A stretch of 64,000 bases of DNA, from positions 24,824 through 88,823 of the forward strand of contig PLLJ01000023.1 of the NCBI GenBank assembly GCA_003140935.1, written 5' to 3'. Position 1 is the stretch's first letter; every line of letters begins with the position of its first letter. Below the pieces are notes generated by a model. That model ran no database searches, was not told the origin of the DNA, and saw only the letters and a list, made by a program, of their open reading frames with translations. This DNA is from Candidatus Omnitrophota bacterium. Its GTDB lineage: Bacteria > Omnitrophota > Omnitrophia > Omnitrophales > Aquincolibacteriaceae. This document shows, one piece after another, positions 1 through 28,289 of this stretch. Made by a program: the position numbers and the translations under genes.

Positions 1-353
1 CTGTTTTCAAAATCACCAACGATCCCAGGATCACGCCGATCGGCAGTTTTCTCAGAAAGACGAGCCTTGATGAATTTCCTCAATTCCTGAATGTCCTCAT
101 GGGGGATATGAGCGTTGTGGGTCCCAGGCCTCCGCTTCCGAATGAAGTAGAAGAATATGAGCCTTGGCAGCGCCGGAGGCTTTCCATGAAGCCCGGCATT
201 ACCTGTATCTGGCAGGTCTCGGGACGCAACACCATCACTTTCGAAAAATGGATGGCGCTGGACCTGAAGTATATCGACAACTGGTCACTCGGATTGGACC
301 TTCAGCTTCTCGCCAAGACTCTTAAGGCCGTCGTTTCTCGCGACGGTAAGTAA
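1..353 (+). CDS. Polyprenyl-phosphate sugar phosphotransferase, C-terminal part (5' end lies outside the window)
   Basis: Reading frame opens at the window edge (frame from nt 3). The translation ...[44 protein letters not shown]...[13 protein letters not shown] matches the conserved bacterial sugar-transferase (WbaP/ExoY/CpsE) C-terminal domain. Confidence 0.8.
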
Positions 354-619
354 AACTTTCCCGCCGCATAGCTAAAACTCCGTCTACCCTCCAAGGGATT
401 ACCGGCACTTTTCGTCAAAAATTTGTAATGTTTATCCTTACATCCTATGGGGGAAAGGAAGAAGACCTAATGCCCTGTTCCCTGATACTCCTTGAGGCTA
501 TTAGTCGCAAGATCAAATGGACATAGCCTGACATACAAAAAAACGTCGTCTGTTAAACTTTTGTTGCAATGTTGGTGAGAAAAAGACGCACAGTTATTTT
601 AGAGAAGGAGAGTGCAGCT

Positions 620-1564
620 ATGAAAAGCAAGTATCAGTATCTTTCCGGAAAAACATTAGGGAAGACGGGGCGAGATTATCCCTCTAAAGATAAAGATTTG
701 ACGATCGTGATGTTCCCTTACGAAAGCCACAGCGTATTCCCTAAAGCGATCCGAGAGATCCATAAAGTTCTCTCGATCCCCTTCAATCTGATCGTCGTTG
801 AAGGGAACGCTTCCGATGAGGTCCGGAGCCAGTTGGAAGAATGTGAAAAACGCTACGGGAACACAACGGTTCTTTACTCCACCAAGTACCTGTCGCCGGG
901 GGAGATCATCAATCTGGCCAAGGCTCAGGTCAAGACTCCCTACAGCTTCTTTTTGGATAACGAGATCTACATCAGACCGGGCTGCATCGAGCGAATGCTT
1001 ATGAATGCCAAGAACTGGGGCACAGATATTGTTTTTCCGAAGAACAGTCTGATCTCTCGCGTGTTCAAGACACCGCAGAAAGATATCGTCAGTCTTGAAA
1101 CGCCCGGCTTGCGGCTTACGTTCCTCATCTCCACGTCAAGCCTTTCAAAACTTGTGAAGGTGGATGAACATACCGATCTGTATACCGCGGGATGGGACCT
1201 CATGCTTGAGTTCCAAGCAAAAGAGCTCAGGACCCGGGTCTCCGATGAGGCCTGGGTGGAAAGCTATCCCGAGCATGCGATCAGAAGAAGCGATCGTTCC
1301 CTCTATCAGCATCAATGGGACCTTAAGCGTCACCACGATGTCGTTGGCTATTTCCAAAGCAAATGGAATCTGGAGATCCAGGACGGTCTTTATCAACGGT
1401 GGTTTGAAGCCAAGAGCCGGAAGGCGGCCGCCCCGACGTCCCAGGATCCGGAGTACGAACCTTCCACACACGAAGTTCAACTTCAATCGCGTCCTCTGGA
1501 GAACCCATCGGCTTCATTGGAAAACGTTCCTCTTCCGGGGAATAACGGGCGAACGGAGGGTTGA
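620..1564 (+). CDS. Hypothetical GT-A-fold glycosyltransferase-like protein
   Basis: AGAAGGAGAG RBS 8 nt before the ATG at 620. Short segments (IVMFPYES, LIVVEGNASDE, FFLDNEIY) resemble GT2 N-terminal motifs, but the DxD is replaced by DNE. Stop is 1 nt before rfbF. Confidence 0.45.
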   Translation: MKSKYQYLSGKTLGKTGRDYPSKDKDLTIVMFPYESHSVFPKAIREIHKVLSIPFNLIVVEGNASDEVRSQLEECEKRYGNTTVLYSTKYLSPGEIINLAKAQVKTPYSFFLDNEIYIRPGCIERMLMNAKNWGTDIVFPKNSLISRVFKTPQKDIVSLETPGLRLTFLISTSSLSKLVKVDEHTDLYTAGWDLMLEFQAKELRTRVSDEAWVESYPEHAIRRSDRSLYQHQWDLKRHHDVVGYFQSKWNLEIQDGLYQRWFEAKSRKAAAPTSQDPEYEPSTHEVQLQSRPLENPSASLENVPLPGNNGRTEG

Positions 1565-1565
1565 T

Positions 1566-2336
1566 ATGAAGGCCATTATCCTTGCGGGAGGGAAGGGGAC
1601 GCGGCTTTCGGAGGAGACACTGTTAAAGCCAAAACCATTGGTCGAAATAGGCGAGATGCCGATCCTGTGGCACATCATGAAGTACTACTCCTCCTTCGGA
1701 ATCAATGATTTTGTGATCTGCTGCGGCTACAAGAGTTACATGATCAAAGAATATTTTGCGAACTATTTTCTCTATTGCTCCGATGTGACGTTCGATATGA
1801 CGGGAAATACGATGCAGGTGCTTAAGAAAAAGGCCGAACCGTGGCGAGTCACCCTGATCAATACCGGGCTTGAGACGCTGACCGGAGGACGTTTGAAATG
1901 TGTGAAAGACCATGTGGGCGGCGAGTCTTTTTGTTTCACTTACGGCGACGGCCTCAGTGATGTGAATATCGCCAAGCTTATTGATTTTCACAAAAAACAT
2001 AAGAAGATCGCGACGGTTACTGCTTCAAAGCACCAGAGCCGCTACGGGGTCATTTCTGCGGACCACGATCTTGTGACGCAATTCAGCGAAAAACCGATCA
2101 TGGAAAACAGCTGGATGAATTCCGGTTTTTTTGTGTTGGAGCCGGCCGTTTTTGATTACCTCCCCGAGAAAGATACCATGTTTGAAAAAGAACCGATGCA
2201 GCGTCTGATCCAAAGCGGCCAGCTCTGCGCATACCGTCACGACGGTTTTTTTCAATCCATGGATTCTTTGAGGGACAAAATGATCCTGGAGGATCTGTGG
2301 CAGAGGGGAGAAGCCCCATGGAAAGTATGGCTATGA
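1566..2336 (+). CDS. rfbF: Glucose-1-phosphate cytidylyltransferase
   Basis: MKAIILAGGKGTRLSEETLLKPKPLVEIGEMPILWHIMKYYS...FQSMDSLRDKMILEDLWQRGEAPWKVW is near-colinear with enterobacterial RfbF/DdhA. GGAGGG RBS is present. The long ORF 1164-2336 in the track is an upstream artefact extension. Confidence 0.93.
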   Translation: MKAIILAGGKGTRLSEETLLKPKPLVEIGEMPILWHIMKYYSSFGINDFVICCGYKSYMIKEYFANYFLYCSDVTFDMTGNTMQVLKKKAEPWRVTLINTGLETLTGGRLKCVKDHVGGESFCFTYGDGLSDVNIAKLIDFHKKHKKIATVTASKHQSRYGVISADHDLVTQFSEKPIMENSWMNSGFFVLEPAVFDYLPEKDTMFEKEPMQRLIQSGQLCAYRHDGFFQSMDSLRDKMILEDLWQRGEAPWKVWL

Positions 2337-3463
2337 ACGATCACTTCTGGAAAAATAAAAAAGTTTTTTTGACGGGGCACACGGGTTTTAAAGGGAGTTG
2401 GTGTGTGTTGTGGCTCAAAAGTCTTGGCGCCGATATCACGGGATATTCGTTAGAGCCTCCAACGCGGCCTAGTTTGTTCGAGAGCGCCCGGGTCGACGAA
2501 GGTATAAGGTCTGTCATCGGAGACATCCGGGACTTCCAGTATTTAAAAAAATGTCTCGGCGAAACCGCTCCGGATATCGTGATCCACATGGCGGCCCAGC
2601 CTCTCGTGCGGAAGTCTTATCAAGATCCGGTGGGGACTTACGCGACGAATGTCCTCGGGACCGTTCATTTACTTGAAGCGGTACGCCAGGGAACCGGTGA
2701 CCCCGTCGTCATCAACATCACAACGGACAAGTGCTATGAAAACAAGGAGTTGGACCGGGGCTATCGCGAGAATGAACCTCTGGGCGGGGCGGACCCTTAT
2801 AGCAGTAGTAAAGCATGTTCTGAAATAGCCACCTCGGCTTATCGGGATTCATACTTTCGATCCAAAGATGGTAGAGCTCGAGGCGTTGCGTTGGCAACGT
2901 GCCGTGCCGGAAACGTTATCGGAGGCGGTGATTGGGCCGAAGATCGGTTGGTCCCTGACATCGTGCGGGCTTTGATGGACGGGAGGGAGGTCATCATCAG
3001 AAATCCCAATTCCGTACGGCCCTGGCAGCATGTGTTGGACCCTTTGAACGGATACTTCACGCTCATCGAGAAACTTTTTGAAAATAGATCGCAATACGCG
3101 GAAGCTTGGAATTTCGGCCCGGACGAAGATGCCGCAAAACCGGTGTCTTGGATCGTGGATCAGCTTTTCATGTTTTGGGGCAAAAAGAGTTTTTGGAAAA
3201 AGGATCAAAATGATAATCCCCACGAAGCGAACTTGTTAAAGCTCAATTGCTCTAAAGCGAAGTCTCGTTTGGGATGGAGACCCAAATTGGGTTTGGAGGA
3301 GGCGTTGCGGTGGACTGCGGAGTGGTTTAAAGCTTACGCGGGAGGCGGGGATATGCGCCAGTTCAGTGAATCTCAGATCCGGAAATTTATGGAGGCCGGC
3401 TATGTTCCGGCTAAGACAGGAGAAAGTAAAGTTTTGAAAGAGGCTCATGTTTCTTGTTCGTGA
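2318..3463 (+). CDS. rfbG: CDP-glucose 4,6-dehydratase
   Basis: FWKNKKVFLTGHTGFKGSWCVLWL...HMAAQPLVRKSY...YSSSKACSEIATSAYRDSY...RPWQHVLDPLNGY is colinear with RfbG/DdhB and carries the SDR YxxxK motif. Alternative start at 2333 forms an ATGA overlap with the rfbF stop. Confidence 0.92.
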   Translation: MESMAMNDHFWKNKKVFLTGHTGFKGSWCVLWLKSLGADITGYSLEPPTRPSLFESARVDEGIRSVIGDIRDFQYLKKCLGETAPDIVIHMAAQPLVRKSYQDPVGTYATNVLGTVHLLEAVRQGTGDPVVINITTDKCYENKELDRGYRENEPLGGADPYSSSKACSEIATSAYRDSYFRSKDGRARGVALATCRAGNVIGGGDWAEDRLVPDIVRALMDGREVIIRNPNSVRPWQHVLDPLNGYFTLIEKLFENRSQYAEAWNFGPDEDAAKPVSWIVDQLFMFWGKKSFWKKDQNDNPHEANLLKLNCSKAKSRLGWRPKLGLEEALRWTAEWFKAYAGGGDMRQFSESQIRKFMEAGYVPAKTGESKVLKEAHVSCS

Positions 3464-3519
3464 GGGCGGGGTGTCACGGCCCCACCGATCACAGAAGGGG
3501 CATAGTCCAGGAGGAGCAG

Positions 3520-4083
3520 ATGATGATCTTTAAAGAAACAAAGCTTAAAGGCGCATTTATCGTTGAACTCGATAAAAAAGAGGACGAGCGGGGATTTTTT
3601 GCAAGGGCTTTTTGCCGGAATGAGTTCTCCAAGCAGGGTCTTAAGGCAGATATTGCCCAGATCAATACGTCTCACAATAACAAGAAGGGCACCCTGCGCG
3701 GCATGCACTTTCAAGCGGATCCCTATCCGGAATGCAAGATCAACCGCTGTATCCGAGGCGCCATTTACGATGTCATCATTGACCTGCGGCCGGATTCAAA
3801 AACTTTTAAACAATGGTTCGGGATCGAATTGCGCGAAGGGGACGGGAGGATGCTCTATGTCCCGGAGCATTTTGCCCACGGGTATCAGACCCTCGAAGAT
3901 CATTCCGAAGTCCTTTACCTGGTCACCCAATTTTATGTTCCTAGTGCGGGGAAGGGTGTTCTGTACAACGATCCGGCTTTTAATATTCAATGGCCGGTGG
4001 AAATCACTTCCGTGTCGGAGCAGGACATGAGTTGGAAACCTTTCAAGCTCGAGGGAACCTTGAAATGTTCTTGCGGGTCATAA
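3520..4083 (+). CDS. Sugar-nucleotide 3,5-epimerase, RmlC-like cupin; likely acts on CDP-4-keto-6-deoxyglucose
   Basis: GAGGAG RBS. MMIFKETKLKGAFIVELDKKEDERGFF...RGMHFQ...YVPEHFAHGYQTL is the typical dTDP-4-dehydrorhamnose 3,5-epimerase fold signature. Confidence 0.8.
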   Translation: MMIFKETKLKGAFIVELDKKEDERGFFARAFCRNEFSKQGLKADIAQINTSHNNKKGTLRGMHFQADPYPECKINRCIRGAIYDVIIDLRPDSKTFKQWFGIELREGDGRMLYVPEHFAHGYQTLEDHSEVLYLVTQFYVPSAGKGVLYNDPAFNIQWPVEITSVSEQDMSWKPFKLEGTLKCSCGS

Positions 4084-4119
4084 GCTGATCATAATCCCCA
4101 GGAAAGGAGGGTTCAATCC

Positions 4120-5157
4120 ATGAAAGCGACTATCGCGGTACCCACCAAAAACCGGACAAAGTATTTAGACGAGGTTTTTGCGGGAGCGCTAGGGCAACAT
4201 TACGATGATTACGAGATCCTTGTGGGCGATTCCTCCGATCAGGACGACGTGTACGAAAAGATCAAGTCTCTCGGCCCCGATAAAAAGATCCGCTATGTAC
4301 GCTACCCTCCCTTTGCGACGCAGCCATGGAAATTCACTCAAATGCTCAAGGAGGCCAAAGGGGAATGGATGACCTTTTTAGGGGATGACGATCTTTTGGA
4401 TCCGGATTATCTCCAAGTGCTGATGGGGCATGCCGAAGGGCAACCTAATGCGACCATCATCCTGAACCGTTTTCGGGAGATCAACGGGGAGGGGAAACTT
4501 TTGCGTCTGGATCCGCTGCATAAAACCGTCATGTCTCCGGCGGAGTTTCTGAGCCGTTTATTCCTGCCGTCGAGGGATTTTTTTAAAATGAATATCACGG
4601 GTCCGTTATTCCGGAGGGAAATACTTCTTCAGGAGGGCGGCTTTCCCGAACTTCCGAATTGTTGGCATACGGACATTCTCGGCTGGGCCAGAGTGGGGTC
4701 ACGCGGGTTGGCGATCTTTGAGAAAAGATCGCTTTGCGGTGTACGGGTTCATTATGGTTCATTGACATCGACCTCGTTTAATGACGATGTGGAAGACCTG
4801 ATCCAGACGAGTCAAGGTTTGGAAGAGATCGTTTCGGGTTTGCTTACGAGGATGGAATCGGAACTCACGACAGCGGAAGATGTGAGGTTCTTAAAGACAG
4901 CGAGACAAAATCTTCACACCTACGCGCGGCGTCATATCGGGCGGGCCTTTGACCGCGGATTTGTGGGGCTTTTGTCCAAAGATGATAGGGAGCTTTCTGA
5001 AAAGCTAGCGCACATGTTTAAAAGAATGCAGGCGATGAAGATCCCTGTTTTTGGGTCGGCCTATATTTACTCTTTTTTGAGACTTTTGAATTATTCCTTA
5101 AGGCGTCCGTTACTCGACGCGCTGGTCCGGTACAAGATCAGAAAACTATGCTCATAA
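4120..5157 (+). CDS. GT2-type glycosyltransferase, paralog A
   Basis: AGGAAAGGAGGG RBS. N-terminal IAVPTKNRTKYLDEVF...YEILVGDSSDQDD and a GDDD DxD motif. About 50% identical to the product of 6656-7690. Confidence 0.7.
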   Translation: MKATIAVPTKNRTKYLDEVFAGALGQHYDDYEILVGDSSDQDDVYEKIKSLGPDKKIRYVRYPPFATQPWKFTQMLKEAKGEWMTFLGDDDLLDPDYLQVLMGHAEGQPNATIILNRFREINGEGKLLRLDPLHKTVMSPAEFLSRLFLPSRDFFKMNITGPLFRREILLQEGGFPELPNCWHTDILGWARVGSRGLAIFEKRSLCGVRVHYGSLTSTSFNDDVEDLIQTSQGLEEIVSGLLTRMESELTTAEDVRFLKTARQNLHTYARRHIGRAFDRGFVGLLSKDDRELSEKLAHMFKRMQAMKIPVFGSAYIYSFLRLLNYSLRRPLLDALVRYKIRKLCS

Positions 5158-5246
5158 CCGCGGAAAGTTTTTATGATCCAAACGATGACCGGAATACTTG
5201 AAAGAAATTCGATGACGGAAGATGCAGCTTTCATAGGAGAACCTGG

Positions 5247-6659
5247 ATGATCCTTATCGATCGGGCACTTCAGCAAAGGGAAGAAGAAAATAAACCGATC
5301 CGTGTCGGTATGATCGGCGCTGGTTTTATGGGGCGGATGATCGCGTTTCAGATCGGAACCTCTGTGACCGGGATGCGGATGGTCGCGATCGCGAATCGCC
5401 ATGTGGAGAAGGCGAAGGAGGCTTATGCGCTTGCCGGCATTCACGACGTTCAAGAGGTCTCGGAGCTGGACGAGCTGGAGGATGCTATTTTAAAGGGACG
5501 CTGTGCGGTGACGGAAAACCCGCTTCTTTTAAGCCGGGCGGAGAATATTGATGTTCTGATCGAAGTGACCGGCACTATTAATTATGCGGTCTATCCGATT
5601 CTCGAAGCCATTCAACATAACAAGCATGTTATTTTGATGAACGCGGAGCTGGATGCCACGTTGGGGCCCATCCTGAAAACCTTTGCGGACAAAAAAAGGG
5701 TTGTGTATACGAATGCGGACGGCGATCAACCGGGAGTGGAAATGAACCTTTATCGATTCGTCAAAGGGACCGGGATCAGGCCTGTTTTGGCGGGAAACGT
5801 CAAGGGTTTGTATGATCCTCACCGGACGCCCGAGACTCAGGCAGCATTTGCAAAGCAATGGGGACAGAATCCGCGAATGGTCACCTCGTTCGCGGACGGG
5901 ACCAAAGTTTCATTCGAGCAAGCTGTTGTGGCCAATGCAACGGGCATGTCCATCGCTAAAAGGGGAATGCTTGGGTTTACGGTGCCATCCGGTATGGAGA
6001 TCCGTGAGGCATTTAAAATCTACCCCGCGGATGTGCTTTTAAAAGGTAACGGGATTGTCGATTACCTTGTCGCCGCCGAGCCGGGGGCCGGGGTTTTTAT
6101 CATCGGTCATGAAACACATCCTCTGCAGCGGAAATATCTCGAGCTCTACAAGCTCGGGAAAGGTCCTTTTTATTGCTTTTATGCGCCTTATCATTTATGC
6201 CACTTTGAAATTCCCAATTCGGTCGCACGTACCGTGATCTTTCACGATGCCGCTGCGACTCCGATGGGCGCTCCTCAGGTGGATGTGGTCGCAACGGCCA
6301 AGAGGGACCTCAGAAAAGGCGAGATGCTGGATGGGATCGGTTGCTTCATGACCTACGGACAATGTGAAAAGGCGGAGATCACCTACTCAGAACAACTCTT
6401 GCCCATGGGCATTGCCGAGGGATGCGTTTTGAACCGGGATATTACCAAAGACGCAGTGCTGACCTATAGAGATGTCACGCTCCCTGAGAATTCCATGAGC
6501 GTTGAACTCAGGCGCCAACAAGATCAGTCGTTTTTTTCAGGACAAAAGGATATGGAAACAGCCTCTTTGAAAGAGCGGTCCCGGCATTCTGAAGAAGAAA
6601 GATACTGGGAGGTCTACCATTTCGGTGCCGGAAATCGAGATTCACAGGTGATGCCATGA
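5247..6659 (+). CDS. NAD(P)-binding oxidoreductase with C-terminal SAF-like domain, COG4091-type (predicted homoserine-dehydrogenase-like)
   Basis: AGGAGA RBS. Rossmann motif IRVGMIGAGFMGR at the N-terminus. Overall architecture is the family annotated as predicted homoserine dehydrogenase with a SAF domain. Confidence 0.55.
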   Translation: MILIDRALQQREEENKPIRVGMIGAGFMGRMIAFQIGTSVTGMRMVAIANRHVEKAKEAYALAGIHDVQEVSELDELEDAILKGRCAVTENPLLLSRAENIDVLIEVTGTINYAVYPILEAIQHNKHVILMNAELDATLGPILKTFADKKRVVYTNADGDQPGVEMNLYRFVKGTGIRPVLAGNVKGLYDPHRTPETQAAFAKQWGQNPRMVTSFADGTKVSFEQAVVANATGMSIAKRGMLGFTVPSGMEIREAFKIYPADVLLKGNGIVDYLVAAEPGAGVFIIGHETHPLQRKYLELYKLGKGPFYCFYAPYHLCHFEIPNSVARTVIFHDAAATPMGAPQVDVVATAKRDLRKGEMLDGIGCFMTYGQCEKAEITYSEQLLPMGIAEGCVLNRDITKDAVLTYRDVTLPENSMSVELRRQQDQSFFSGQKDMETASLKERSRHSEEERYWEVYHFGAGNRDSQVMP

Positions 6660-7690
6660 GAGCAACGATCGCGATTCCTGCCCACAATTCCACAAAGTAC
6701 TTCGAAGAAGCCTTTGCCGGCGCCATGCGGCAGAATTTTGAAGACTATGAGGTTGTGGTCGCGGACTCTTCCGATCACGATAGCGTTCAGGAGAAAGTAG
6801 AGCCTTATTTGACGGATGGCAAGGCGCGCTATTTGCGTCTGCCCCCCGAAACAGAATTTCTTGTGAAACTGAATATTCTTCTTAAGTCCGCCCAGGGAGA
6901 GTGGATGACATACCTGTGTGATGACGACACCCTTCGCGAGGATTATTTGAGCGTCATGATGAAACATGCGGAAAGTCAACCCCAGGCGACTTTGATCCGG
7001 TGCCGGTTCGAGATCATTGATGGAGAAGGGCATCTTTTAAGGATGGATCCTGGGTCGAAGGAAGTGATGGGTCCTGCGGAGTTTTTGAGCCGCTTGTTCC
7101 TCCCCGAAAAGAAATTCTTCAAAATGAATATATCGGGAGTCTTGTTCCACCGTAAGACTTTTTTGGAAGAAGGAGGGTTCCGTGAATTCCCTCTGGCGTG
7201 GCATGCCGACTTGCTGTCGTGGGCCCTTATAGGGTCCCGGGGGCTGTGTATTTTCGAAAAAAAATGCCTTACGGAGATCCGTGTGCATCCTGATTCTCAG
7301 AATTCAGTCTATGACGAGGACCTGCTGAAGGCCGTTCAGACGAATTCCGGCGTGAGCGATGCACTGGAGCATATCTTAAAGAGACTCGAACAAGAAGTGA
7401 CGACCTTTAAAGACCGTAAATTTTTGGAGGCCGCGAAAAAGAATGTTAAGCATTATATGCGAAGGCATCTTTCGAGGGCATTCGACCATGGTTTTATGGC
7501 TGCCCTGTCGACAGACCGTCCCGGTATCGGTGAATATGTCGGATCGTGGCTTGAAAAAATGAAACAGATGGGAGTTCCCAGGTTCAAATCAGCATTGGTG
7601 TATTCCTGTCTGGGACATTTGGCTTATCCCGTACGGCGGCCGGTGCTGGACGTGTTCAAGCGGTATAAGACGAGAAAGTGGTGCCGTTGA
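6656..7690 (+). CDS. GT2-type glycosyltransferase, paralog B
   Basis: ATGA overlap with the upstream stop. MRATIAIPAHNSTKYFEEAF...YEVVVADSSDHD...CDDD. Clear paralog of the 4120-5157 product. Confidence 0.7.
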   Translation: MRATIAIPAHNSTKYFEEAFAGAMRQNFEDYEVVVADSSDHDSVQEKVEPYLTDGKARYLRLPPETEFLVKLNILLKSAQGEWMTYLCDDDTLREDYLSVMMKHAESQPQATLIRCRFEIIDGEGHLLRMDPGSKEVMGPAEFLSRLFLPEKKFFKMNISGVLFHRKTFLEEGGFREFPLAWHADLLSWALIGSRGLCIFEKKCLTEIRVHPDSQNSVYDEDLLKAVQTNSGVSDALEHILKRLEQEVTTFKDRKFLEAAKKNVKHYMRRHLSRAFDHGFMAALSTDRPGIGEYVGSWLEKMKQMGVPRFKSALVYSCLGHLAYPVRRPVLDVFKRYKTRKWCR

Positions 7691-7753
7691 TCCCAGGGAA
7701 TGCAGATTTTGAGAAGCGGAATGCAGAGGATGTGCTGAAAAGGAGAGTTTTCG

Positions 7754-8773
7754 ATGAAAAACCATAAGGGTCCCGGATGTATTTTGGTGACGGGCGGCGC
7801 GGGTTTTATTGGCTCTCATCTGTGTGAACGATTGCTTCAGGAAGGATACCGGGTCGTTTCCTTTGACAATTTCAACAACTTTTATGACCGGTCCATCAAA
7901 GAGAGGAACATCGAATCGGTCCGGTCGCAATCGACAGACGGAAAATTTCTGAGCGTTTATGGAGACATCCGGGATAAATTCCATCTCTTTGAAGTAATGG
8001 AAAGGGAACGCCCCCTTTGTGTCATCCATCTGGCGGCCATGGCTGGGGTCCGGCCGTCGTTGCAGGACCCGTTACATTATACTGATGTCAATGTCGTCGG
8101 GACGCAGCTTCTTCTGGAGGCGTGTGCAGGGATGAAGGTACGTCACTTTATCTTCGCCTCTTCTTCTTCCGTTTATGGCAATAATTCCAAGGTGCCTTTT
8201 GCCGAGACGGACTGTGTGGATTACCCGATCTCACCCTATGCCGCAACTAAAAAGGCCGGGGAATTGATCTGTTACAATTATTTCCATCTTCACGCCATGA
8301 GGATCGCATGCCTCCGTTTCTTTACGGTTTATGGGCCCCGCCAGCGTCCCGATTTGGCGATTCATAAGTTCGCCAGGATCATCCAAAGCGGTCAGGAAAT
8401 CTCGATGTATGGAGACGGCGAATCCCGGCGTGATTATACTTATATTGATGATTGCATCAGCGGCGTCATGGGGGCCCTCCGCTGGGTTGTTTCTGAAAAG
8501 GGAGCTCCGGCAGCCTATGAGATTGTGAACCTTGGAGAATCGCGCATGATTTCCCTGGCTGAGATGATCGCTTGCATTGAAAAGACGCTCGGGAAAAAAG
8601 CCCGGATCAAACGCCTGCCGCTCCAGCCCGGTGACGTGGAGCGGACCTATGCGGATATCAGCAAAGCGCGGCAATTGTTCGGCTATGCTCCCGCAACGGA
8701 TTTTGAAACCGGGATCGGACATTTCGTCGACTGGCTGCATTCTCTGGAAAAAGCGGGAGCTAAGACGTCATGA
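7754..8773 (+). CDS. NAD-dependent sugar-nucleotide epimerase/dehydratase (SDR); candidate 4-reductase/epimerase of the CDP-sugar pathway
   Basis: AAAGGAGAG RBS. ILVTGGAGFIGSHL Rossmann motif and SPYAATK catalytic YxxxK. Same family as UDP-glucuronate 4-epimerase and WcaG. Confidence 0.85.
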   Translation: MKNHKGPGCILVTGGAGFIGSHLCERLLQEGYRVVSFDNFNNFYDRSIKERNIESVRSQSTDGKFLSVYGDIRDKFHLFEVMERERPLCVIHLAAMAGVRPSLQDPLHYTDVNVVGTQLLLEACAGMKVRHFIFASSSSVYGNNSKVPFAETDCVDYPISPYAATKKAGELICYNYFHLHAMRIACLRFFTVYGPRQRPDLAIHKFARIIQSGQEISMYGDGESRRDYTYIDDCISGVMGALRWVVSEKGAPAAYEIVNLGESRMISLAEMIACIEKTLGKKARIKRLPLQPGDVERTYADISKARQLFGYAPATDFETGIGHFVDWLHSLEKAGAKTS

Positions 8774-9726
8774 ATCAGACCAAACCGCTTCCTTTTTTCT
8801 CAGTGGTCATCCCCGCTTATAACAGCGAAAGATATTTACCGGCGACCCTCGAAAGCGTGATCGGTCAAACGATCCGTGATTGGGAAATAGTCGTGGTGGA
8901 TGATGCATCGTCAGATGGAACGCCCGAGCTGTTGGCCAGGTATGCGGCGAAATATCCCCAGATCCGCATTTTCCGAAATGAACAGAACTCGGGCATCGCC
9001 AAGACCCTGAATCGCGGCATTCGCGAAGCCCGGGGAGAATGGATCGCCCGTCTTGACAGCGACGATCTGTTTACTCCGGGCTATCTGGGAACTCTTCGCT
9101 CTTTTATCGCAGAACTGCCGCATTCCCCTTGTTTTATTTCAAGCTGGGTCACCGTCATAGACGGAAATGGAGCGAAGGTGCTTGATGTGCGTTTGCCCTC
9201 CGCTAAAACAATCGCCCGCATGATGCATTTTGAGAATTTCCTTTATCATCCCGCCACGAGTTTCCCAAAGCGAGTGTGGGAACAAGTCGGCGGTTATCCG
9301 GATGAAGATCGGAAATTATCCGAAGACACGGAGATGTGGAAGCGGTTTTTCAAAAACGACGTATCACTTTTCATGATCCCAAAACACCTTGTCCTTTACA
9401 GGATCCATCAAACGAATACCACGTCCTTCAAGGACGGAGAAATAACAAAAAAGGGGAGCCGTCAAAGCGCCCTGGCGCAACAGTATCATGAATGGAGGGT
9501 CTCGCTTTTTTTAAAGCAGGGAGATCTCCGGGCCGCGCGTCATGAACTCCTCTTATTAAAGGAAATCCGACCAGCCTTTTCGTTAAAAAATACTTTGTAC
9601 TATCTTATGACGCTCCTCCCAAATTTCCTCGTCTATGGCTTCATGTGGGAGATCCGCCCCCGGATGCGTCGTTTGACAAAGTTCCTTAAGACCGGACTGC
9701 TTCAGGCCCGGCACAATCCCTCCTAG
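8770..9726 (+). CDS. Glycosyltransferase family 2
   Basis: ATGA overlap with the SDR stop. FSVVIPAYNSERYLPATLESVIGQT...EIVVVDDASSDGT...RLDSDD are canonical GT2 motifs. Confidence 0.85.
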   Translation: MNQTKPLPFFSVVIPAYNSERYLPATLESVIGQTIRDWEIVVVDDASSDGTPELLARYAAKYPQIRIFRNEQNSGIAKTLNRGIREARGEWIARLDSDDLFTPGYLGTLRSFIAELPHSPCFISSWVTVIDGNGAKVLDVRLPSAKTIARMMHFENFLYHPATSFPKRVWEQVGGYPDEDRKLSEDTEMWKRFFKNDVSLFMIPKHLVLYRIHQTNTTSFKDGEITKKGSRQSALAQQYHEWRVSLFLKQGDLRAARHELLLLKEIRPAFSLKNTLYYLMTLLPNFLVYGFMWEIRPRMRRLTKFLKTGLLQARHNPS

Positions 9727-10059
9727 ACACCTTTTTCATCCCTCCGAAAATTGATACTCCAGAATTTTCACATGATGAATGCTTTTTTTCAATCCTTCTT
9801 GTTATAAATCGCTATTCCCTGTTTATTAATGGGAATGACTGTCGACAAAAAGGATTAGAATGTTAATTAAGAAGCTGTTTGATAGCGCTTGAGAATGCCG
9901 TCTTTTGTGTCAAAAATATCAAAAAGATCCGCTTATTTTCACATTCCAGCAATTATTTTTGCCAAAAAATGACTTAATTGTAATGTTGTAACATCAATGA
10001 TATAAAAAAGATAAGTCGATTCCTAGACCCTAGAAAAAAATATTTTGTTTTTGTCACTT

Positions 10060-10330
10060 GCTTTTTATTTGAACCCCGTGTAGGGTTCTATCGTACGAGG
10101 GATGCGGTGATTCCCTGATACGAACAAAGCTTTTTCAAAGGTTTTACAGATTCTTGCTCCCGAAAGGGAGAGACCTCGAGTGCTGTTCCAGCCAAATCGT
10201 TCGAGATCGCAAATCGAAAGCCTCTTGACAAGAAGAACGTGATTGTCAGGCGAGTTTAAAGGTTTTGCGGTTCTGACGCATTTTTCAGACATAACATACG
10301 CACTTATATCCTACCTTAGCTTGCCCGCGG
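10060..10330 (+). ncRNA. Candidate structured 5' leader or ncRNA upstream of the giant surface-protein gene
   Basis: Consecutive perfect hairpins: GAACCCcgtgtaGGGTTC, AGGGAtgcggtgatTCCCT and CTCCCgaaaGGGAG (GNRA-type loop). The 300 nt before them are AT-rich and lack a convincing ORF. Confidence 0.25.
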
Positions 10331-10380
10331 CATTTCGTTCTCCTTGAGCTTTGTAAAATCAAAAAAAGGAGAACAATACA

Positions 10381-13300
10381 ATGAAACTCAATCTCAGTTT
10401 AGAATCACTCGGGTTAGTAGAACCGATCAGGTTAATAGAACCACTCAGGTTAGACGAAGCACGGGACCAGAAGCCTGTTTTTTGGAAACTCAGGATCTGG
10501 AAAGGTGTTTTACGGAAATCGCGGAAAATCCTTTCCGCCTCTTTGGCTTTGATCTTTCTGGGTCAGATGACCTTAATGAACACCGGATGGGCGCAATTGC
10601 CGCCTCCTACGGCGGCGGATCTGACGAATCCGCAAACACCGACCGTTTCGGTGAGTTCAACATCAACAACAAGTCCAACCACCACAACTGCAACGACCTC
10701 AACGCAACCCGTCTCGACGGATGCTTTTCTAATGAGCAGTCCGCTGAGTCCGGCAACGTCAACCACCACCTCAACTAGCACCGCCCTTGTCGGGACCCAA
10801 GCGACAGTCTTATCGGCAAGTGTGTCTACGACCGGTCGATCGTTGTATGTCTCAACAACAGGAAATAATACGGGAGATGGTTCCACCGCAAATCCCTACG
10901 CGACTATCGCGTATGGTGTTTCCCAGCTTAAGGCGGGGGACACTCTTTACATTGAAGCAGGCACCTATCAGCAGTCTGGTGCCGGCGCGGTGCTCACGAC
11001 TTCGGGAACTGCGGATGCCCATATCACGATCGAAGGTGTGGGGAATGTGGTCATCGAAGGTACGGGCACGGTCACTTATGCCGGATATACAGTAGCTTCG
11101 AATTTCAACCCGGCGTTTGACACCGGCGGTCAGTCTTACATCGACTTCAAAAATCTGACCGTTGATAATCTTCGTGCTCCGGTGAAGGTCAGCACGAACA
11201 GCTCTTACATTGATATCGATGGCGTGAACGCGGACCGCGATCACTTCGGTCTCTGGATCGACGGTGCCAATAACGTTTCCGCTCACAACATGACGATCAC
11301 CAACTGCCGCAACGGTGTCCGCACGGATTCCACGGCGGGCGTGACGCCTCACGATATTCTCTTGGAGAATATCGATTCCAGCGGAGCGAAAGACGTTTAC
11401 TCCGGGTTTGACACCGCATACCGTAACGGTGACGGTTTCATTCTCGAGTACGGCAATAACATCACCATACTCAACTGTAAATCCCATGACAACTGGGATT
11501 CTGGTTTCGACATCAAGGCGACCAATGTTTATTTAGAAGGGGTCGACTCTTATGGCAATTACCATCAAGGCGTGAAGATCTGGGGAAGCGGAATCGTGTT
11601 CAAAGATTCCATGATTCGTGACACGCGATCCTTGCCCGGCGATCCTGTTGCAAGTGAAGGTTTTGGTGTTAATAATCGCGGCGGATCCGTAACGTTTATT
11701 AATACGACCTTCGCGAATAACTATGCTGCCGATATCCGCACCGATAACCAGATTGGAATTCCTATCACGGTCCTGGAGAACTGTATTATTGCCAGGAATC
11801 TTTCCTCCGGGAAACTTTGGGAGGACACGGTCGGTACGATAACCGACAGCAACAATATCTGGTACAATGCCACAACAGGCAGTGCGGGTTTTACCCTCAG
11901 TTCAACGAGCAAGTTCATTGATCCCAAGTTCGTTGATTTGACCGGTAACGATTTTCACCTGCAGTCCGGTAGCCCGGCGATCAATGCGGGAAATATAAGC
12001 TATCCTATCGGACCAACCGATTTTGATGGCAATACCCGTGTCAACGGTGCAAGCGTGGATATCGGTGCTTATGAATTCGGCGGGACGACCACTCCGACTG
12101 AATTTGTAGGCGTGCAGAACGGGGCGACAGTCACCGGTATGGTAACGGTCGGCCCGAATCTTGCCACTCATCCCAACCTTCAAAATGTGACCTATTCCTT
12201 AAATGGTGCCAGCTCGGGGTATGTCACGGTGTCGCCTTTCTATTGGAGTGGTACCACGGGTACCGGGACGACCGGATTTGACACCACGACGCTTGCTAAC
12301 GGTGCTTATACACTGACCGCCCATTGTGTCGAAAGTACGGGCGCACATGATATGAGCCTTAGCTTTACTGTGAACAATCCCATTCTTTCTCAGGGGGGAG
12401 ACTTCACGGGCGTTACCGACGGAGCGGTGATGAGCGGGTTGATCAATGTGGGGCCGAACCTGACCGCCCATCCCAGCATCAGCAAGGTTGCCTACTACTT
12501 GAACGGAACCTCATCCGGAAAGGTGTATACCGCTCCTTTCTTTTGGGGCGGCCTGACGGGGGACGGTACCAAGGGATTTGATACGACGACGCTTGCCGAC
12601 GGGAACTACACCCTCGGCATGGTCTATACCGATAAAACGGGCGACCATAGCGTGTCAGTATCCTTTAAGATCAGTAATATTCCGACGACCGATACCACGG
12701 CGCCGGTGATCAGTGCGGTTACTTCAACGGGTGTTACATCAACAGGAGCGACGATCAACTGGACGACCAATGAAGCCAGTGATTCCCAGGTACAGTATCG
12801 TGTGCAGGGGACCACGAATTGGTTGAACACGACGTTGAACGCTGCGCTTGTGACCAGCCACTCGGTTGTGCTGAGCGGGCTGAACGCGAGTACGGTGTAT
12901 GAGTATCAGGTGAAGTCAAAGGATCAGGCGGGGAATCTTGCCACTGAGGCAACGATCTCCAACTTGACGACATTGACTCCCACCGCGACTTGCACAACGG
13001 CCATGTGTGGCGTTGCCGCAAATCAAACGGTAAGTGGGATTGTCAAGATCCAGCCGAACCTGACGCTCAATCCAGACATCCGGAAAGTGGCGTATTATCT
13101 GAATGGAACACAGTCGGATAAGGAATATACGGCGCCTTTCACGTGGGGTGGTGTAAACGGTTTTGATACGACCAAACTGGCGGATGGTACTTATACGCTA
13201 AGTGGGGCGTATACGACCTCGACGGGGGATAAGGGGTTTTCGATCGCCTTTACGGTCCAAAACACCACGCCGCCGCCCGATACCACGGCTCCAGTGATCA

Positions 13301-13872
13301 GTACGGTTACTTCGGGTAACATTAGTCCAACCGGAGCGACGATCAGCTGGACGACCAATGAAGCCAGTGATTCCCAGGTGCAGTATCGCGTGAAGGGAAC
13401 CACGACTTGGTTGAACACGACGCTGAACACCACGCTTGTGACCAGCCACTCGGTTGTGCTGAGCGGGCTGAACGCGAGTACGGTGTATGAGTATCAGGTG
13501 AAATCGAAGGACCAGGCGGGAAATCTTGCCACGCAGGCGACGGTCTCAAGCTTGACGACGGCAGCTGCTCCTCCGGCTACTTGCACTACGGCAGTTTGCG
13601 GTGTTACGGCGGGACAGGTTGTAAGCGGGACGGTCAATATCCAGCCCAACCTGACACTTGACCCTAGCGTCCGAAAGGTGGCATATTACTTGAACGGGAC
13701 CCAATCCGGGAAGGTCTATGCGGCACCTTACTTGTGGGGTGGTTCCACAGGGGATGGCACAACGGGTTTTGATACCAAGACGCTCGCCAATGGTACCTAT
13801 ACACTGGCGATGGTCTATACCGATGCGACGGGAGACCACACTGTGTCAATAACTTTCACGGTCAAGAATTAA
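10381..13872 (+). CDS. Giant secreted or surface protein: Thr/Ser-rich linker, right-handed parallel beta-helix (pectin-lyase-like), four ~95-aa Ig-like repeats and two FN3 domains
   Basis: AAAGGAG RBS 9 nt upstream. Signal-like h-region [23 protein letters not shown] lies after a 49-aa N-terminal extension. Linker [25 protein letters not shown]. Beta-helix repeats ([17 protein letters not shown]..., [20 protein letters not shown]...). Four repeats of the type VGPNL.HP...YYLNG..SG..Y.APF.WGG..G.G..GFDT..LA.G.YTL, and two repeats TAPVIS.VTS...[62 protein letters not shown]. Confidence 0.8.
10408..10450 (+). repeat. Tandem 18-bp direct repeat (about 2.3 copies) directly after the annotated start codon
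   Basis: GTTAGTAGAACCGATCAG / GTTAATAGAACCACTCAG / GTTAGAC... The units are in frame and encode [15 protein letters not shown]. Confidence 0.5.
12697..13560 (+). repeat. Two near-identical ~280-bp intragenic direct repeats (FN3 units) about 580 bp apart
   Basis: 12697-12975 and 13276-13560 share long identical runs, for example cagccactcggttgtgctgagcgggctgaacgcgagtacggtgtatgagtatcaggtgaa. Estimated DNA identity is over 90%. Confidence 0.8.
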
Positions 13873-14197: not shown

Positions 14198-14959
14198 ATG
14201 AAAAAGACCGTGGATGCCGAGAAAAAAGAAAAAAATGAAACTCAACCGGAACCTTTCAGTGTTGTTACTAAAAGGGGGGCACCGCCTTTTCCGGTGCGAG
14301 GGCCTTTTAGTCCGACCAAACGCGCCAGGATCATGATCCTGGACGATCATCCGATCCTTCGTCGCGGAATTGCTGACTACATCAACGCGGAATCCAATAT
14401 GATGATCTGCGGGGAAGCCGAGGATGCTCACCAGGCCTTAGAGATCATGCCGACGGCAAAACCCGATCTTGTGATCGTCGACATATCCCTTAACGGCTCA
14501 AGCGGGATCGAGTTTCTGAAGACCTTTCGACTCGAGTATCCCGATATTCCGACTTTAGTGCTGTCGATGCATGATGAATTGCTTTATGCCGAACGGGTCC
14601 TCCGGGAAGGCGCCCGGGGGTATGTCATGAAGCAAGAAGCGGTCGAGAAGATCCTGACCGCGATCCGAAAGATCCTGGAAGGCCAGATCTACCTGAGCGA
14701 TCGCATGATGGAACGTATCCTTGAGAAAAAATACATGGGTCAGCAGGGGAACCTGTCTCCGATGGAGTCTTTGAGCGATCGCGAGTTGGAAGTTTTCAGG
14801 CTCATCGGAGAGGGTATCACCACAACGGACATCGCGCATCAGCTTCACCGGAGCGTGAAAACGATCGAAACCTACCGCGCGCGTATCAAGGTTAAATTTA
14901 ACCTGAAAAATAACATGGAATTGATACGCTTTGCCATGCATTGGGCCCAGAATAAATAA
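14198..14959 (+). CDS. NarL/FixJ-family response regulator (REC + LuxR-type HTH)
   Basis: AGGAAGG RBS before the ATG at 14198. An alternative start at 14333 (MILDDHPI) would remove an unusual 45-aa N-terminal extension. C-terminal LSDRELEVFRLIGEGITTTDIAHQLHRSVKTIETYRARIKVKFNL is a LuxR HTH. Confidence 0.85.
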   Translation: MKKTVDAEKKEKNETQPEPFSVVTKRGAPPFPVRGPFSPTKRARIMILDDHPILRRGIADYINAESNMMICGEAEDAHQALEIMPTAKPDLVIVDISLNGSSGIEFLKTFRLEYPDIPTLVLSMHDELLYAERVLREGARGYVMKQEAVEKILTAIRKILEGQIYLSDRMMERILEKKYMGQQGNLSPMESLSDRELEVFRLIGEGITTTDIAHQLHRSVKTIETYRARIKVKFNLKNNMELIRFAMHWAQNK

Positions 14960-16596: not shown

Positions 16597-16992
16597 TTAT
16601 GCCGGAACTCCCTTTAAGGTCTCTTGGATGATCCTGAGGATATCCGTCAGGCTGAAAGGTTTTTTGACCAGTCTTTTTATTCCGCTGAACTCATTCAACA
16701 ACCAGTTTTCATCATGAAAAAAACCGCTCATGGCGATGATGGGAACATCGGCGCATCCCGGCAAGCTACGGATCTCGCGGGCGATCTCAATGCCGGTTTT
16801 TCCAGGCATCTTGATATCAAGCAAAATAAGCTTCGGTTTCAGTCCGGAGGCTAGATCCACGACTTCGGTCGGGTCACTGACGGTGATCATGTTGTAACCG
16901 CTCAGCGCCAGGGCCTCGCTGAGTTCTCCCAGGAAGATTTCGTCGTCATCCACCACCATGATCGTATTATCCGCATCCTTCATATTCTTCAT
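16597..16992 (-). CDS. Stand-alone REC-domain response regulator (CheY-like), paralog family 1
   Basis: IMVVDDDEIFL...LILLDIKMPGKTG...IIAMSGFF...KKPF. Lies upstream of, and is co-oriented with, the HisKA_3 kinase. Confidence 0.85.
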   Translation of the reverse strand: MKNMKDADNTIMVVDDDEIFLGELSEALALSGYNMITVSDPTEVVDLASGLKPKLILLDIKMPGKTGIEIAREIRSLPGCADVPIIAMSGFFHDENWLLNEFSGIKRLVKKPFSLTDILRIIQETLKGVPA

Positions 16993-17947: not shown

Positions 17948-18028
17948 GAATAGCAAAAACGTATTCACGCAGGTTATGGCCATAGAAAGAAAGCAGATCG
18001 CTTTAGGCATTTGCCGGGATTAAAAAAT

Positions 18029-23296: not shown

Positions 23297-23429
23297 CAAG
23301 CAGGGTCAACCTTCCCGGCGGTCTGTTTTCCATGAACAAGATTTAATTCTCTATTAATCCTCTTGTCATCCGCCGTATGAGAAGATCGCGCCGGTTAAAA
23401 GACAAAAGTTCAATAACGAAGGAGACACT

Positions 23430-23801
23430 ATGAAACAAATACTGATCGTGGATGATGAAAAGAGAATGACGAGGCTTTACGAGTACATTTTGACCCAAAA
23501 GGGTTACAAAACGTTCGTAGCCGATAGCGCAAACGACGCGAACGAGATCTTGAAAAAAGAAAAGGTCGACGTGGTCCTCCTGGATATCAACATGCCTGGA
23601 GCGGGCGGAGATGATCTTTACGGTGTGATGAAACTCTTCCATCAAGAAGTAAAAGTGATCATCAGCAGCGTTCTTCCCATCGGTAGGCAGAAGCAGCTTG
23701 TGCCCGGGGCGACGGCGTATTATGACAAATCCCAGGCCATCGAGATGCTTTTCAGCAAGATCGTCAAGGCCTGCACGGAAAGCCCGATCGCAGTGAAATA
23801 G
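23430..23801 (+). CDS. Stand-alone REC-domain response regulator
   Basis: AAGGAGA RBS. MKQILIVDDEKRMTRLYEYIL...VVLLDINMPGAGG. Confidence 0.8.
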   Translation: MKQILIVDDEKRMTRLYEYILTQKGYKTFVADSANDANEILKKEKVDVVLLDINMPGAGGDDLYGVMKLFHQEVKVIISSVLPIGRQKQLVPGATAYYDKSQAIEMLFSKIVKACTESPIAVK

Positions 23802-23880
23802 ACCCCAAGTAGAATTCCGAAAATCACTTCCCCCGATCGAAGGAAATGCCACAAAGGGTATTTTTGTTTTCTTTGAGCGG

Positions 23881-25038: not shown

Positions 25039-25041
25039 CTC

Positions 25042-28274: not shown

Positions 28275-28289
28275 CAAAAGGAGAAAAAA

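Follow-up and report, generated by a model that had tools for sequence, protein, structure and literature searches.

What do the genes that open this stretch of DNA assemble, and is their product meant for the protein encoded next to them? The window analysed here (the whole stretch, 64,000 nucleotides) comes from a Candidatus Omnitrophota bacterium (assembly GCA_003140935.1, contig PLLJ01000023.1, positions 24,824 to 88,823 of the forward strand). A first-pass annotation of its first 13,872 positions had proposed that the cytidine diphosphate (CDP)-6-deoxyhexose gene cluster found there might be a dedicated glycosylation system, whose target would be the adjacent 1163-residue secreted protein. 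Our analysis points to a different answer. We propose that positions 1-9726 represent the downstream half of an exopolysaccharide or capsule locus of about 18 kb that depends on Wzx/Wzy, and in which a DLO1-type oxidoreductase (hereafter DLO; 5247-6659), related to the DXR-II enzyme of Brucella, would reduce C4 of the CDP-sugar, and the adjacent beta-helix protein would act on the polymer. Taken as a whole, the roles of these two proteins included, this is the best explanation that sequence comparison offers, and we give it a probability of about 60%.

Gene Content and Operon Organization

Gene identities in the window were derived from a map of the open reading frames (ORFs) and from Pfam and NCBIfam profile scans (NCBIfam cut-offs: TIGR02623, 300 bits; TIGR02622, 278; TIGR01221, 156; TIGR03025, 296; TIGR01007, 108; TIGR03097, 188; the gathering score of PF00535 is 23.3 bits). 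All the genes named in the first-pass annotation were found where it had placed them, on the + strand and with scores far above chance; the scans confirmed the initiating phosphotransferase, the four glycosyltransferases (GT2) and the COG4091/SAF oxidoreductase. The features of this region are the following:

1-353, + strand: 3' end of a priming polyprenyl-phosphate hexose-1-phosphate transferase gene (NCBIfam EpsZ/EPS_sugtrans/WbaP, E = 3e-58 to 1e-49; 477 residues in full on contig L001)
569-1564, + strand: GT2a, a GT2-like glycosyltransferase (PF00535, weak, 30 bits; 68% conserved in the relatives L091 and L092)
1566-2336, + strand: rfbF, glucose-1-phosphate cytidylyltransferase (TIGR02623 equivalog, 393 bits)
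2333-3463, + strand: rfbG, CDP-glucose 4,6-dehydratase (TIGR02622 equivalog, 503 bits; T-D-K and YxxxK motifs)
3520-4083, + strand: RmlC-like cupin epimerase (TIGR01221, 165 bits; PF00908, 203 bits; RmlC 3,5-epimerases in the PDB, E = 6e-40)
4120-5157, + strand: GT2b, a glycosyltransferase and paralogue of GT2c (PF00535, 70 bits; 61% identical orthologue in L091, which has no cassette)
5247-6659, + strand: DLO, a DLO1-type (DXR-II-like) NAD(P) oxidoreductase with a SAF domain, COG4091 (PF21135, DRL_cat, 174 bits)
6656-7690, + strand: GT2c, glycosyltransferase (PF00535, 60 bits)
7754-8773, + strand: extended short-chain dehydrogenase/reductase (SDR), predicted UDP-glucuronate 4-epimerase (Pfam Epimerase/GDP_Man_Dehyd; PDB 5u4q, 6zl6)
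8770-9726, + strand: GT2d, glycosyltransferase, last gene of the operon (PF00535, 128 bits)
9727-10380, no strand: AT-rich intergenic spacer of 654 bp (37% GC versus 50% in the operon)
10381-13872, + strand: 1163-residue multidomain beta-helix protein, secreted or anchored (Pfam domains; good Shine-Dalgarno sequence)

The GT2a stop lies one nucleotide ahead of the rfbF start, ATGA overlaps join rfbF to rfbG and the DLO stop to the start of GT2c, and the start of GT2d overlaps the stop of the epimerase gene; given this tight packing, the genes from 569 to 9726 are taken to form one operon. The spacer at 9727-10380, judged from its sequence, probably holds a separate promoter, and the gene of the 1163-residue protein would be transcribed from this AT-rich region of its own. 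Promoter-like sites in the spacer were not significantly more frequent than in shuffled sequences, no terminator was found in it, and its comparison with Rfam gave chance-level matches only.

Assembly and Export Genes Upstream of the Window

An exact look-up of the RfbF protein retrieved other assemblies of the same strain (contigs L001-L004), whose DNA is 100% identical to that of the window over 12.3 kb and reaches 8.4 kb further upstream. Directly upstream of base 1 these contigs carry, in this order, the genes for Wzc, Wzx, a Wzy-type protein, two GT4 glycosyltransferases and the full priming transferase. Wzc is a Wzz/GNVR/AAA_31 protein with a tyrosine autokinase domain (TIGR01007, 145 bits, above the cut-off); the Wzx flippase and the polymerase candidate are recognized by Pfam only (Polysacc_synt and Wzy_C, respectively), and the full-length priming transferase of L001 scores 416 bits with TIGR03025, also above the cut-off. 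The earlier observation that the window contains neither flippase nor polymerase was correct, but only because the window begins inside the locus; neither is missing from the locus itself, however, since both lie directly upstream, within 8.4 kb. With its priming transferase, glycosyltransferases, Wzx, Wzy_C protein and Wzc, the locus is indeed a glycan-assembly cluster, as had been recognized.

In two relatives (L091 and L092), picked by a search with the partial Wzc and sharing 73-76% Wzc identity, genes for a Wza/EpsE-like exporter (Poly_export/SLBB) and a BBP2/EpsL-like outer-membrane barrel are located just before wzc. According to the families to which these proteins belong, the priming transferase and up to six glycosyltransferases would build the repeat unit on undecaprenyl phosphate, and the unit would then be flipped, polymerised and exported.

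The locus shares the priming phosphoglycosyltransferase, several glycosyltransferases, Wzx, a Wzy_C protein and the Wzc tyrosine autokinase with the loci for the group 1 capsule/colanic acid of E. coli and with the Eps type of Methylobacillus, and its relatives hold the Wza/EpsE-like exporter and EpsL-like barrel of Wza-Wzc export loci. It differs from group 1/Eps loci in its set of precursors, which here would be a CDP-6-deoxyhexose made through DLO plus UDP-galacturonate, and in the beta-helix protein appended to it. The product might also be a lipopolysaccharide O-antigen, since O-antigen clusters typically show Wzx/Wzy assembly together with rfb-type sugar genes, and the Wzy_C family also holds O-antigen ligases. 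Nevertheless, the co-polymerase has a C-terminal tyrosine-kinase domain that scores above the TIGR01007 cut-off, and the outer-membrane components of the relatives are marks of capsule/exopolysaccharide export; thus, we regard an O-antigen as quite improbable and an exported exopolysaccharide or capsule as the better reading.

The Predicted CDP-Sugar Pathway

RfbF and RfbG, the pair from which the first-pass annotation had derived CDP-4-keto-6-deoxyglucose, are both equivalog matches above the cut-offs. As for the enzymes that would lead to a 3,6-dideoxyhexose, a tblastn search with a DegT-family protein retrieved nothing below E = 1 (that is, no DegT/E1-type gene) from the 64-kb window, L001, L088, L091 and L092, and the Pfam/NCBIfam scans found no E3-type ferredoxin-NADP-reductase-like gene among the window ORFs scanned; moreover, neither rfbH nor rfbI, whose presence beside the window would have contradicted the first-pass annotation, occurs in the 8.4 kb upstream. 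The reported lack of E1 and E3 in the window is thus borne out, and with it a CDP-6-deoxyhexose, rather than a 3,6-dideoxyhexose, becomes a sound prediction.

As to the order of the reactions, RfbF would yield CDP-glucose, RfbG and the RmlC-like epimerase would act next, and DLO would reduce C4 with NAD(P)H to give the CDP-6-deoxyhexose. The RmlC-like cupin presumably acts on CDP-4-keto-6-deoxyglucose, nucleotide specificity being a property that its sequence does not reveal. The stereochemistry that we infer is a range of candidates, i.e., L-rhamno/L-talo, L-altro or D-gulo/D-allo, depending on the centres epimerised and on the face of reduction, neither of which can be read from the sequence.

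Two characterised pathways are useful for comparison. The CDP-6-deoxy-L-altrose/CDP-D-fucose pathway of Campylobacter jejuni HS:41 (HS41.21-HS41.17; PMC12369002) has in common with this locus the cytidylyltransferase, the 4,6-dehydratase and the RmlC-like 3,5-epimerase; in both, C4 reduction follows the epimerisation of CDP-4-keto-6-deoxy-D-glucose (at the level of prediction in our case), and both are devoid of E1 and E3 (PMC12369002). In HS:41, however, an SDR reduces C4 and a pyranose/furanose mutase acts afterwards, whereas the present locus has no SDR reductase and no mutase, and its reductase slot holds the DLO1 protein. In the 3,6-dideoxyhexose pathway of Salmonella and Yersinia (rfbF, rfbG, rfbH/E1, rfbI/E3), the first two enzymes are those matched here at the equivalog level, while the RmlC-like epimerase and DLO are found, in the window and the 8.4 kb upstream, instead of E1 and E3.

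The SDR and the Predicted Supply of UDP-Galacturonate

The SDR encoded at 7754-8773 had previously been placed in the CDP-sugar pathway, a role that its sequence does not favour. It aligns over its full length with UDP-glucuronate 4-epimerases, namely those of Klebsiella pneumoniae (PDB 5u4q, 3e-81) and Bacillus cereus (BcUGAepi, 6zl6, 7e-63), the next match being MoeE5; its FTVYGPRQRPD motif is identical to that of BcUGAepi, the S/Y/K triad is present, and the JGI name of the gene is "UDP-glucuronate 4-epimerase". Furthermore, an orthologue with 80% identity is found in L091, a relative without any CDP-sugar genes. Apart from RfbG, no other SDR is encoded in the locus. From these similarities we assign the SDR as a UDP-glucuronate 4-epimerase and not as a CDP-sugar reductase. 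A second enzyme of the same route is encoded further downstream:

18011-19327, + strand: UDP-glucose 6-dehydrogenase, Ugd (all three of the three UDPG_MGDP_dh domains)

The epimerase-like SDR, the presence of Ugd and the occurrence of the orthologue in L091 together indicate that the SDR supplies UDP-galacturonate: Ugd would form UDP-glucuronate, which the 4-epimerase would convert into UDP-galacturonate.

The DLO1 Oxidoreductase

The only solved relative of DLO is the Brucella DRL/DXR-II enzyme (PDB 3upl, E = 7e-64 over residues 4-427). The enzyme of Brucella abortus (PDB 3upl, 3upy; PMC3847144) has the same three-domain fold, with a Rossmann, a DRL catalytic and a SAF-like domain; the genetic context of DLO is, in contrast, nucleotide-sugar synthesis and not the isoprenoid (MEP) pathway. 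We also compared the diagnostic positions of DXR-II, taking the roles of the residues from the same source (PMC3847144). Four of them are replaced in DLO (G121A, K191N, T229V and H250L); the DLO family is devoid of two of the three fosmidomycin-anchoring residues (Lys191 and Thr229) and retains Lys193. A valine at 229 together with a hydrophobic residue at 250 corresponds to the description of DLO1, a family that the 2013 description of DXR-II left uncharacterised, and the DLO-family members tested at that time did not complement a dxr mutant (PMC3847144). Beyond that paper, our literature search retrieved no characterised COG4091/SAF/DLO enzyme in CDP-sugar synthesis. On these residues, DLO is predicted not to be a DXP reductoisomerase.

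The homoserine dehydrogenase (HSDH)/DRL-type catalytic motif D-G-x-K...E is invariant in the DLO family, so that hydride-transfer chemistry has plausibly been kept. The subfamily is carried by at least 586 species-representative genomes (best GTDB-representative match, 63%), its members share 58-65% identity across phyla, and all 8000 candidates scored pass E = 1e-10. According to its sequence and position, DLO is likely to be the CDP-4-keto-6-deoxyhexose C4 reductase and represents a better candidate for this step than the SDR at 7754-8773.

DLO might instead have kept a DXR-like reductoisomerase chemistry, rearranging the alpha-hydroxy ketone of a CDP-4-ketohexose and then reducing it, to give a branched-chain or ring-contracted CDP-sugar. 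The homology with DXR-II speaks for this possibility, as does the fact that the substrate, like DXP, would be an alpha-hydroxy ketone; the coupling of RmlC-like protein and DLO, besides, recalls dihydrostreptose synthesis. Yet the residues diagnostic of DXR-II are replaced, members of the family failed in dxr complementation (PMC3847144), and the pathway needs a plain ketoreduction, a step for which there is no other candidate. We therefore consider a retained reductoisomerase chemistry most unlikely, and we think it scarcely less unlikely that DLO1 represents a new nucleotide-sugar enzyme class with such chemistry on the homoserine-dehydrogenase/DXR-II fold instead of the SDR fold, acting on CDP-4-ketohexoses jointly with an RmlC-like epimerase, and whose cassette would make an undescribed branched or ring-contracted CDP-sugar in at least 586 genomes.

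The DLO Cassette in Other Genomes

The neighbourhood of DLO was surveyed in the 80 best-scoring of at least 586 species-level genomes, chosen by DLO similarity; these loci (L007-L086) belong to Cyanobacteria, Bacteroidota, Proteobacteria, Acidobacteria, Verrucomicrobia, Nitrospirota and other phyla. In 77 of the 80, the DLO orthologue (57-63% identical) comes after an RmlC-like gene of the same orientation, and in 71 of these 77 directly after it; rfbF is present in 69 of the 80. The slot of the enzyme forming the 4-keto group is filled either by a Cj1427-like SDR (68 loci) or by RfbG (four loci, from Pontibacter and Fontibacter), never by both.

The Cj1427-like SDR is GalE-like, with an SSCS-Y-K active-site region and without the acid/base pair of dehydratases; its best PDB match (7e-23) is 6vo6/6vo8, which we take to be Cj1427 of C. 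jejuni. We also evaluated whether this SDR could be a cryptic 4,6-dehydratase, and ruled this out, as the T-D-(E/K) motif is lacking and the nearest structure is of the Cj1427 type. A gene for an FAD enzyme resembling L-2-hydroxyglutarate oxidase is found together with the Cj1427-like SDR in 41 loci, and in no locus with RfbG; the cyanobacterial copy of this FAD oxidase scores 625 bits against L-2-hydroxyglutarate oxidase. Cj1427 dehydrogenates C4 by a ping-pong mechanism, in which alpha-ketoglutarate re-oxidises the bound NADH and is converted into L-2-hydroxyglutarate (PMC10680097), and the neighbouring oxidase fits this chemistry. The common cassette is thus predicted to encode a pathway for a CDP-hexose of the non-deoxy type, in which alpha-ketoglutarate would be recycled from L-2-hydroxyglutarate. 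An example of this arrangement, found in 68 loci in all and often together with TIGR04440-like GT2 genes, is that of Sphaerospermopsis (L046:2970-11314).

The logic of the common cassette is that of the C. jejuni Cj1427/Cj1430/Cj1428 module for GDP-D-glycero-L-gluco-heptose (PMC10680097), which combines a ping-pong C4 dehydrogenase, a cupin C3/C5 epimerase and a C4 reductase. Unlike that module, the DLO cassette uses CDP (rfbF) rather than GDP, has DLO and not an SDR as the reductase, and often includes the L-2-hydroxyglutarate oxidase; in the window, in addition, the RfbG 4,6-dehydratase stands in the place of the dehydrogenase. No description of this RmlC-like/DLO CDP-sugar cassette was found in the searchable literature.

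Within 10 kb, the four RfbG-type loci (from Pontibacter and Fontibacter) encode no SDR apart from RfbG itself, which leaves DLO as the only oxidoreductase for C4 reduction. In a tree of DLO proteins the RfbG-type loci come out as polyphyletic, the lineage of the window (to which L092 also belongs) being one case, which points to a swap between dehydrogenase and RfbG that happened several times; that the DLOs of RfbG-type loci form a separate clade was considered and rejected on the same tree. In summary, the RmlC-like/DLO pair is the constant part of the cassette, and a cytidylyltransferase and an enzyme that forms the 4-keto group, either a dehydrogenase or a 4,6-dehydratase, complete it. It is from this comparison that we infer the reaction of DLO as that of a C4 ketoreductase.

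Alternatively, C4 might be reduced by the SDR at 7754-8773 or by an enzyme encoded elsewhere, with DLO acting otherwise, at another position or on a non-nucleotide substrate. The characterised C4 reductases of CDP-, dTDP- and GDP-4-keto sugars in comparable pathways are all SDRs (e.g., HS41.18 of C. jejuni HS:41; PMC12369002), and no characterised enzyme with the DLO fold acts on nucleotide sugars (PMC3847144). Against this stand the end-to-end match of the SDR with UDP-glucuronate 4-epimerases, its orthologue in L091, which indicates that its occurrence is not tied to the CDP pathway, the Pontibacter and Fontibacter cassettes, where no SDR other than RfbG lies within 10 kb, and the linkage of DLO with the RmlC-like gene in 77 of the 80 loci. 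We thus judge another reductase improbable. That DLO simply reduces the C4 ketone, with a fold new to such enzymes, and that the common cassette is a CDP-hexose pathway recycling L-2-hydroxyglutarate, has in our estimation slightly better than even odds.

A further variant lies beside a homologue of the beta-helix protein (L093:6048-10879) and consists of rfbF, a DAO-type oxidase, a Cj1427-like SDR and an RmlC-like gene, with a C-methyltransferase (PF08421/PF08484) in the place of DLO; its gene content suggests that it makes a branched-chain CDP sugar.

The Beta-Helix Protein

The 1163-residue protein is organized as follows:

10522-10590, + strand: hydrophobic signal/anchor segment (residues 48-70), preceded by an N-terminal extension of about 47 residues
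10633-10866, + strand: Ser/Thr-rich spacer (residues 85-162; 55% Ser/Thr, with a maximum of 67% over 30 residues)
about 10834-12075, + strand: Pel9A-like right-handed beta-helix
12103-13869, + strand: three further Big_7-like modules and two FN3 modules

The part coding for the unusual N-terminal extension contains a tandem repeat of three 18-bp units (10400-10453). The protein is 1163 residues long on a single contig of 115.6 kb, whereas an extra Big_7 and an extra FN3 module bring it to 1359 residues in further assemblies of this strain; this difference may be due either to an assembly collapse of the repeats or to a real variation in copy number.

An AlphaFold model of residues 141-610 (pLDDT 91) was compared with the PDB by means of Foldseek. 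The top match was the pectate lyase Pel9A (1ru4, E = 3.8e-12, TM 0.48-0.54), and it was followed by GH136 lacto-N-biosidases, a PL9 rhamnogalacturonan lyase, the alginate epimerases AlgG and AlgE, PL6 lyases, RbmB of Vibrio cholerae and phage capsule/tailspike depolymerases; a search of the PDB with the beta-helix sequence only gave a borderline PL9 match (E = 0.07). An acidic/Lys motif (NGDGF...DNWDxGFDIK) is strongly conserved across the beta-helix subfamily. Homologues with 40-58% identity have a common layout, consisting of a signal peptide, a variable spacer, the beta-helix and a variable number of Big_7-like modules. Five of them are located within or at the border of other polysaccharide loci (L087, L088, L089, L093 and L094), and a UDP-glucuronate epimerase 59% identical to that of the window is encoded directly upstream of the homologue in one locus. 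Their contexts are:

L088: GT4-GT4-priming transferase-GT2-SDR-UDP-glucuronate epimerase in synteny, then two tandem paralogues; no CDP cassette
L087 and L094: the orthologue of the Ugd gene (UDP-glucose dehydrogenase) overlaps the start of the homologue; loci for amino-sugar polymers
L089: homologue inside another Wzx/Wzy locus
L093: homologue beside a different CDP-4-keto cassette, with a C-methyltransferase
L095: homologue without polysaccharide genes nearby

In L088 (8553-13790), the FN3 modules of the second tandem paralogue are 67-71% identical to those of the window protein. Conversely, the 80 DLO loci are devoid of homologues of the beta-helix protein. Taken together, these contexts indicate that the protein travels with exopolysaccharide loci, especially with uronic-acid ones, and not with the CDP sugar.

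On the basis of the modelled fold and the gene contexts, the protein is most likely an enzyme of the locus that acts on the polymer as a lyase, hydrolase or epimerase, which is also the most economical reading. The activity that we propose is the cleavage or modification of a uronic-acid polymer (trimming, release or remodelling), with the Ser/Thr stretch serving as a flexible spacer. Precedents for locus-encoded enzymes acting on the polymer are AlgL, AlgG and RbmB. RbmB, AlgG and Pel9A (PL9) share with the protein a right-handed beta-helix, a secreted or periplasmic location and a position by genes for the biosynthesis of acidic exopolysaccharides; they differ from it in that identity is only 10-17% and in that the present protein, whose activity is putative, has additional Big_7/FN3 modules and a long N-terminal spacer.

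Instead of being an enzyme, the protein could be a non-catalytic matrix component, an adhesin or an S-layer-like protein that binds or organizes the exopolysaccharide. Beta-helix adhesins exist, and such a function would agree with the many Ig-like/FN3 modules, with their varying number between assemblies (1163 versus 1359 residues) and with the tandem paralogues of L088. The closest solved folds are, however, nearly all enzymes (PL9, GH136, AlgG, PL6, RbmB and depolymerases), the NGDGF...DNWDxGFDIK motif is kept across the subfamily, and some homologues are short (about 480-565 residues), with the beta-helix and little else. We consider a structural role unlikely, though well worth keeping in mind, and an enzyme acting on the polymer preferable.

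A Dedicated Protein-Glycosylation System?

The idea that the cluster glycosylates the 1163-residue protein can now be assessed. In its most explicit form, a Wzy_C/PglL-type enzyme would transfer a lipid-linked oligosaccharide onto the spacer of this protein. In favour of such an O-glycosylation module, the genes are adjacent and on the same strand, residues 85-162 are 55% Ser/Thr, homologues of the protein repeatedly lie beside glycan loci, and the upstream Wzy_C protein shows a weak match with the "putative O-glycosylation ligase" model TIGR03097 (42 bits, below the cut-off of 188). The linker is indeed rich in Ser and Thr; its description as almost pure Thr/Ser was nonetheless overstated, given that even the richest 30 residues reach only 67%.

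The evidence on the other side is broader. The locus encodes the Wzc co-polymerase next to Wzx and the Wzy_C protein, and its relatives have a Wza-type exporter and a barrel, i.e., the apparatus of an exported polymer; Wzc, exporter and barrel are dispensable for short protein-linked glycans. Moreover, the Ser/Thr fraction of the spacer is not conserved among the homologues (0.17-0.47, the window protein being the extreme), a 654-bp AT-rich gap separates the genes, the homologues lie in loci for different sugars, some of them without a CDP cassette, the fold is that of polysaccharide-acting enzymes, and no homologue of the 1163-residue protein occurs in the 80 DLO loci. No other oligosaccharyltransferase-like gene appeared in the Pfam/NCBIfam scans of the window. 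Neither the dedicated system nor the linker as its O-glycosylation substrate is upheld by these data, and we hold a module of this kind to be very unlikely, compared with the export of a polymer.

Points Weighing Against the Proposed Explanation

Several observations count against the explanation given here and account for the probability assigned to it. As regards the machinery, the Wza-type exporter is known only from the relatives L091 and L092, because the flank available for the strain of the window stops within wzc; the one Wzy_C protein reaches none of the NCBIfam cut-offs, and polymerase, ligase and PglL-type oligosaccharyltransferase are indistinguishable by sequence. As regards DLO, the survey covered the 80 loci that scored best among at least 586, a choice made on DLO similarity, the Cj1427-like assignment relies on moderate similarity and gene neighbourhood, and the sole characterised member of the DLO/DRL fold is a sugar-phosphate reductoisomerase and not a nucleotide-sugar ketoreductase. 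As regards the beta-helix protein, TM-scores with solved enzymes are only about 0.45-0.59, which means a fold-level resemblance; PF22842 (Pel9A-like) is among the precomputed matches for the gene on L001/L003 and for all its close homologues, but our own hmmscan (E <= 0.001) gave only PF13229; the homologue of L095 has no polysaccharide genes nearby; and the Ser/Thr-rich spacer could be glycosylated.

Neighbouring Regulatory and Other Genes

Downstream of the beta-helix gene the window encodes:

14198-14959, + strand: LuxR/GerE-type response regulator (Pfam Response_reg and GerE)

A regulator of this type recurs beside related loci (L089:3308-4066 and L092:3224-3940), and the protein encoded at 14198-14959 is a possible regulator of the locus. 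Next come, both on the - strand, a HisKA_3 kinase (15060-16523) and a stand-alone receiver (16597-16992). Two-component/PAS sensor kinases are dense at 21129-31323 and 57147-58796, together with a GGDEF-EAL protein, and these regulator types are typical of matrix production. Other genes of the window code for a homologue of LMF1 (lipase maturation factor), a few kb from a lipase-like alpha/beta hydrolase (52029-53534 and 58948-59985), and for DUF4912 and Lnb_N proteins in the 52-61 kb stretch.

Implications

The locus itself is ordinary, so the dedicated glycosylation system proposed for it falls away. It is of a known kind, and its variant feature is a DXR-II-like oxidoreductase in the slot of the CDP-sugar reductase. 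A testable function can thus be proposed for the DLO1 oxidoreductases, as the constant partner of an RmlC-like protein in a CDP-hexose/CDP-6-deoxyhexose cassette that is spread over Cyanobacteria, Bacteroidota, Proteobacteria, Acidobacteria, Verrucomicrobia and other phyla. The alternation of the Cj1427-like dehydrogenase (with the L-2-hydroxyglutarate oxidase) and RfbG would be a natural exchange of modules, toggling between 6-hydroxy and 6-deoxy sugars.

A DXR-II-like C4 reductase would moderately surprise nucleotide-sugar enzymologists. If the proposal is true, a second protein fold would be added to the nucleotide-sugar C4 reductases, a very large and highly conserved family (about 60% identity across phyla) would become annotatable, and many bacterial surface glycans would be predicted to contain undescribed CDP-derived L- or 6-deoxy-hexoses.

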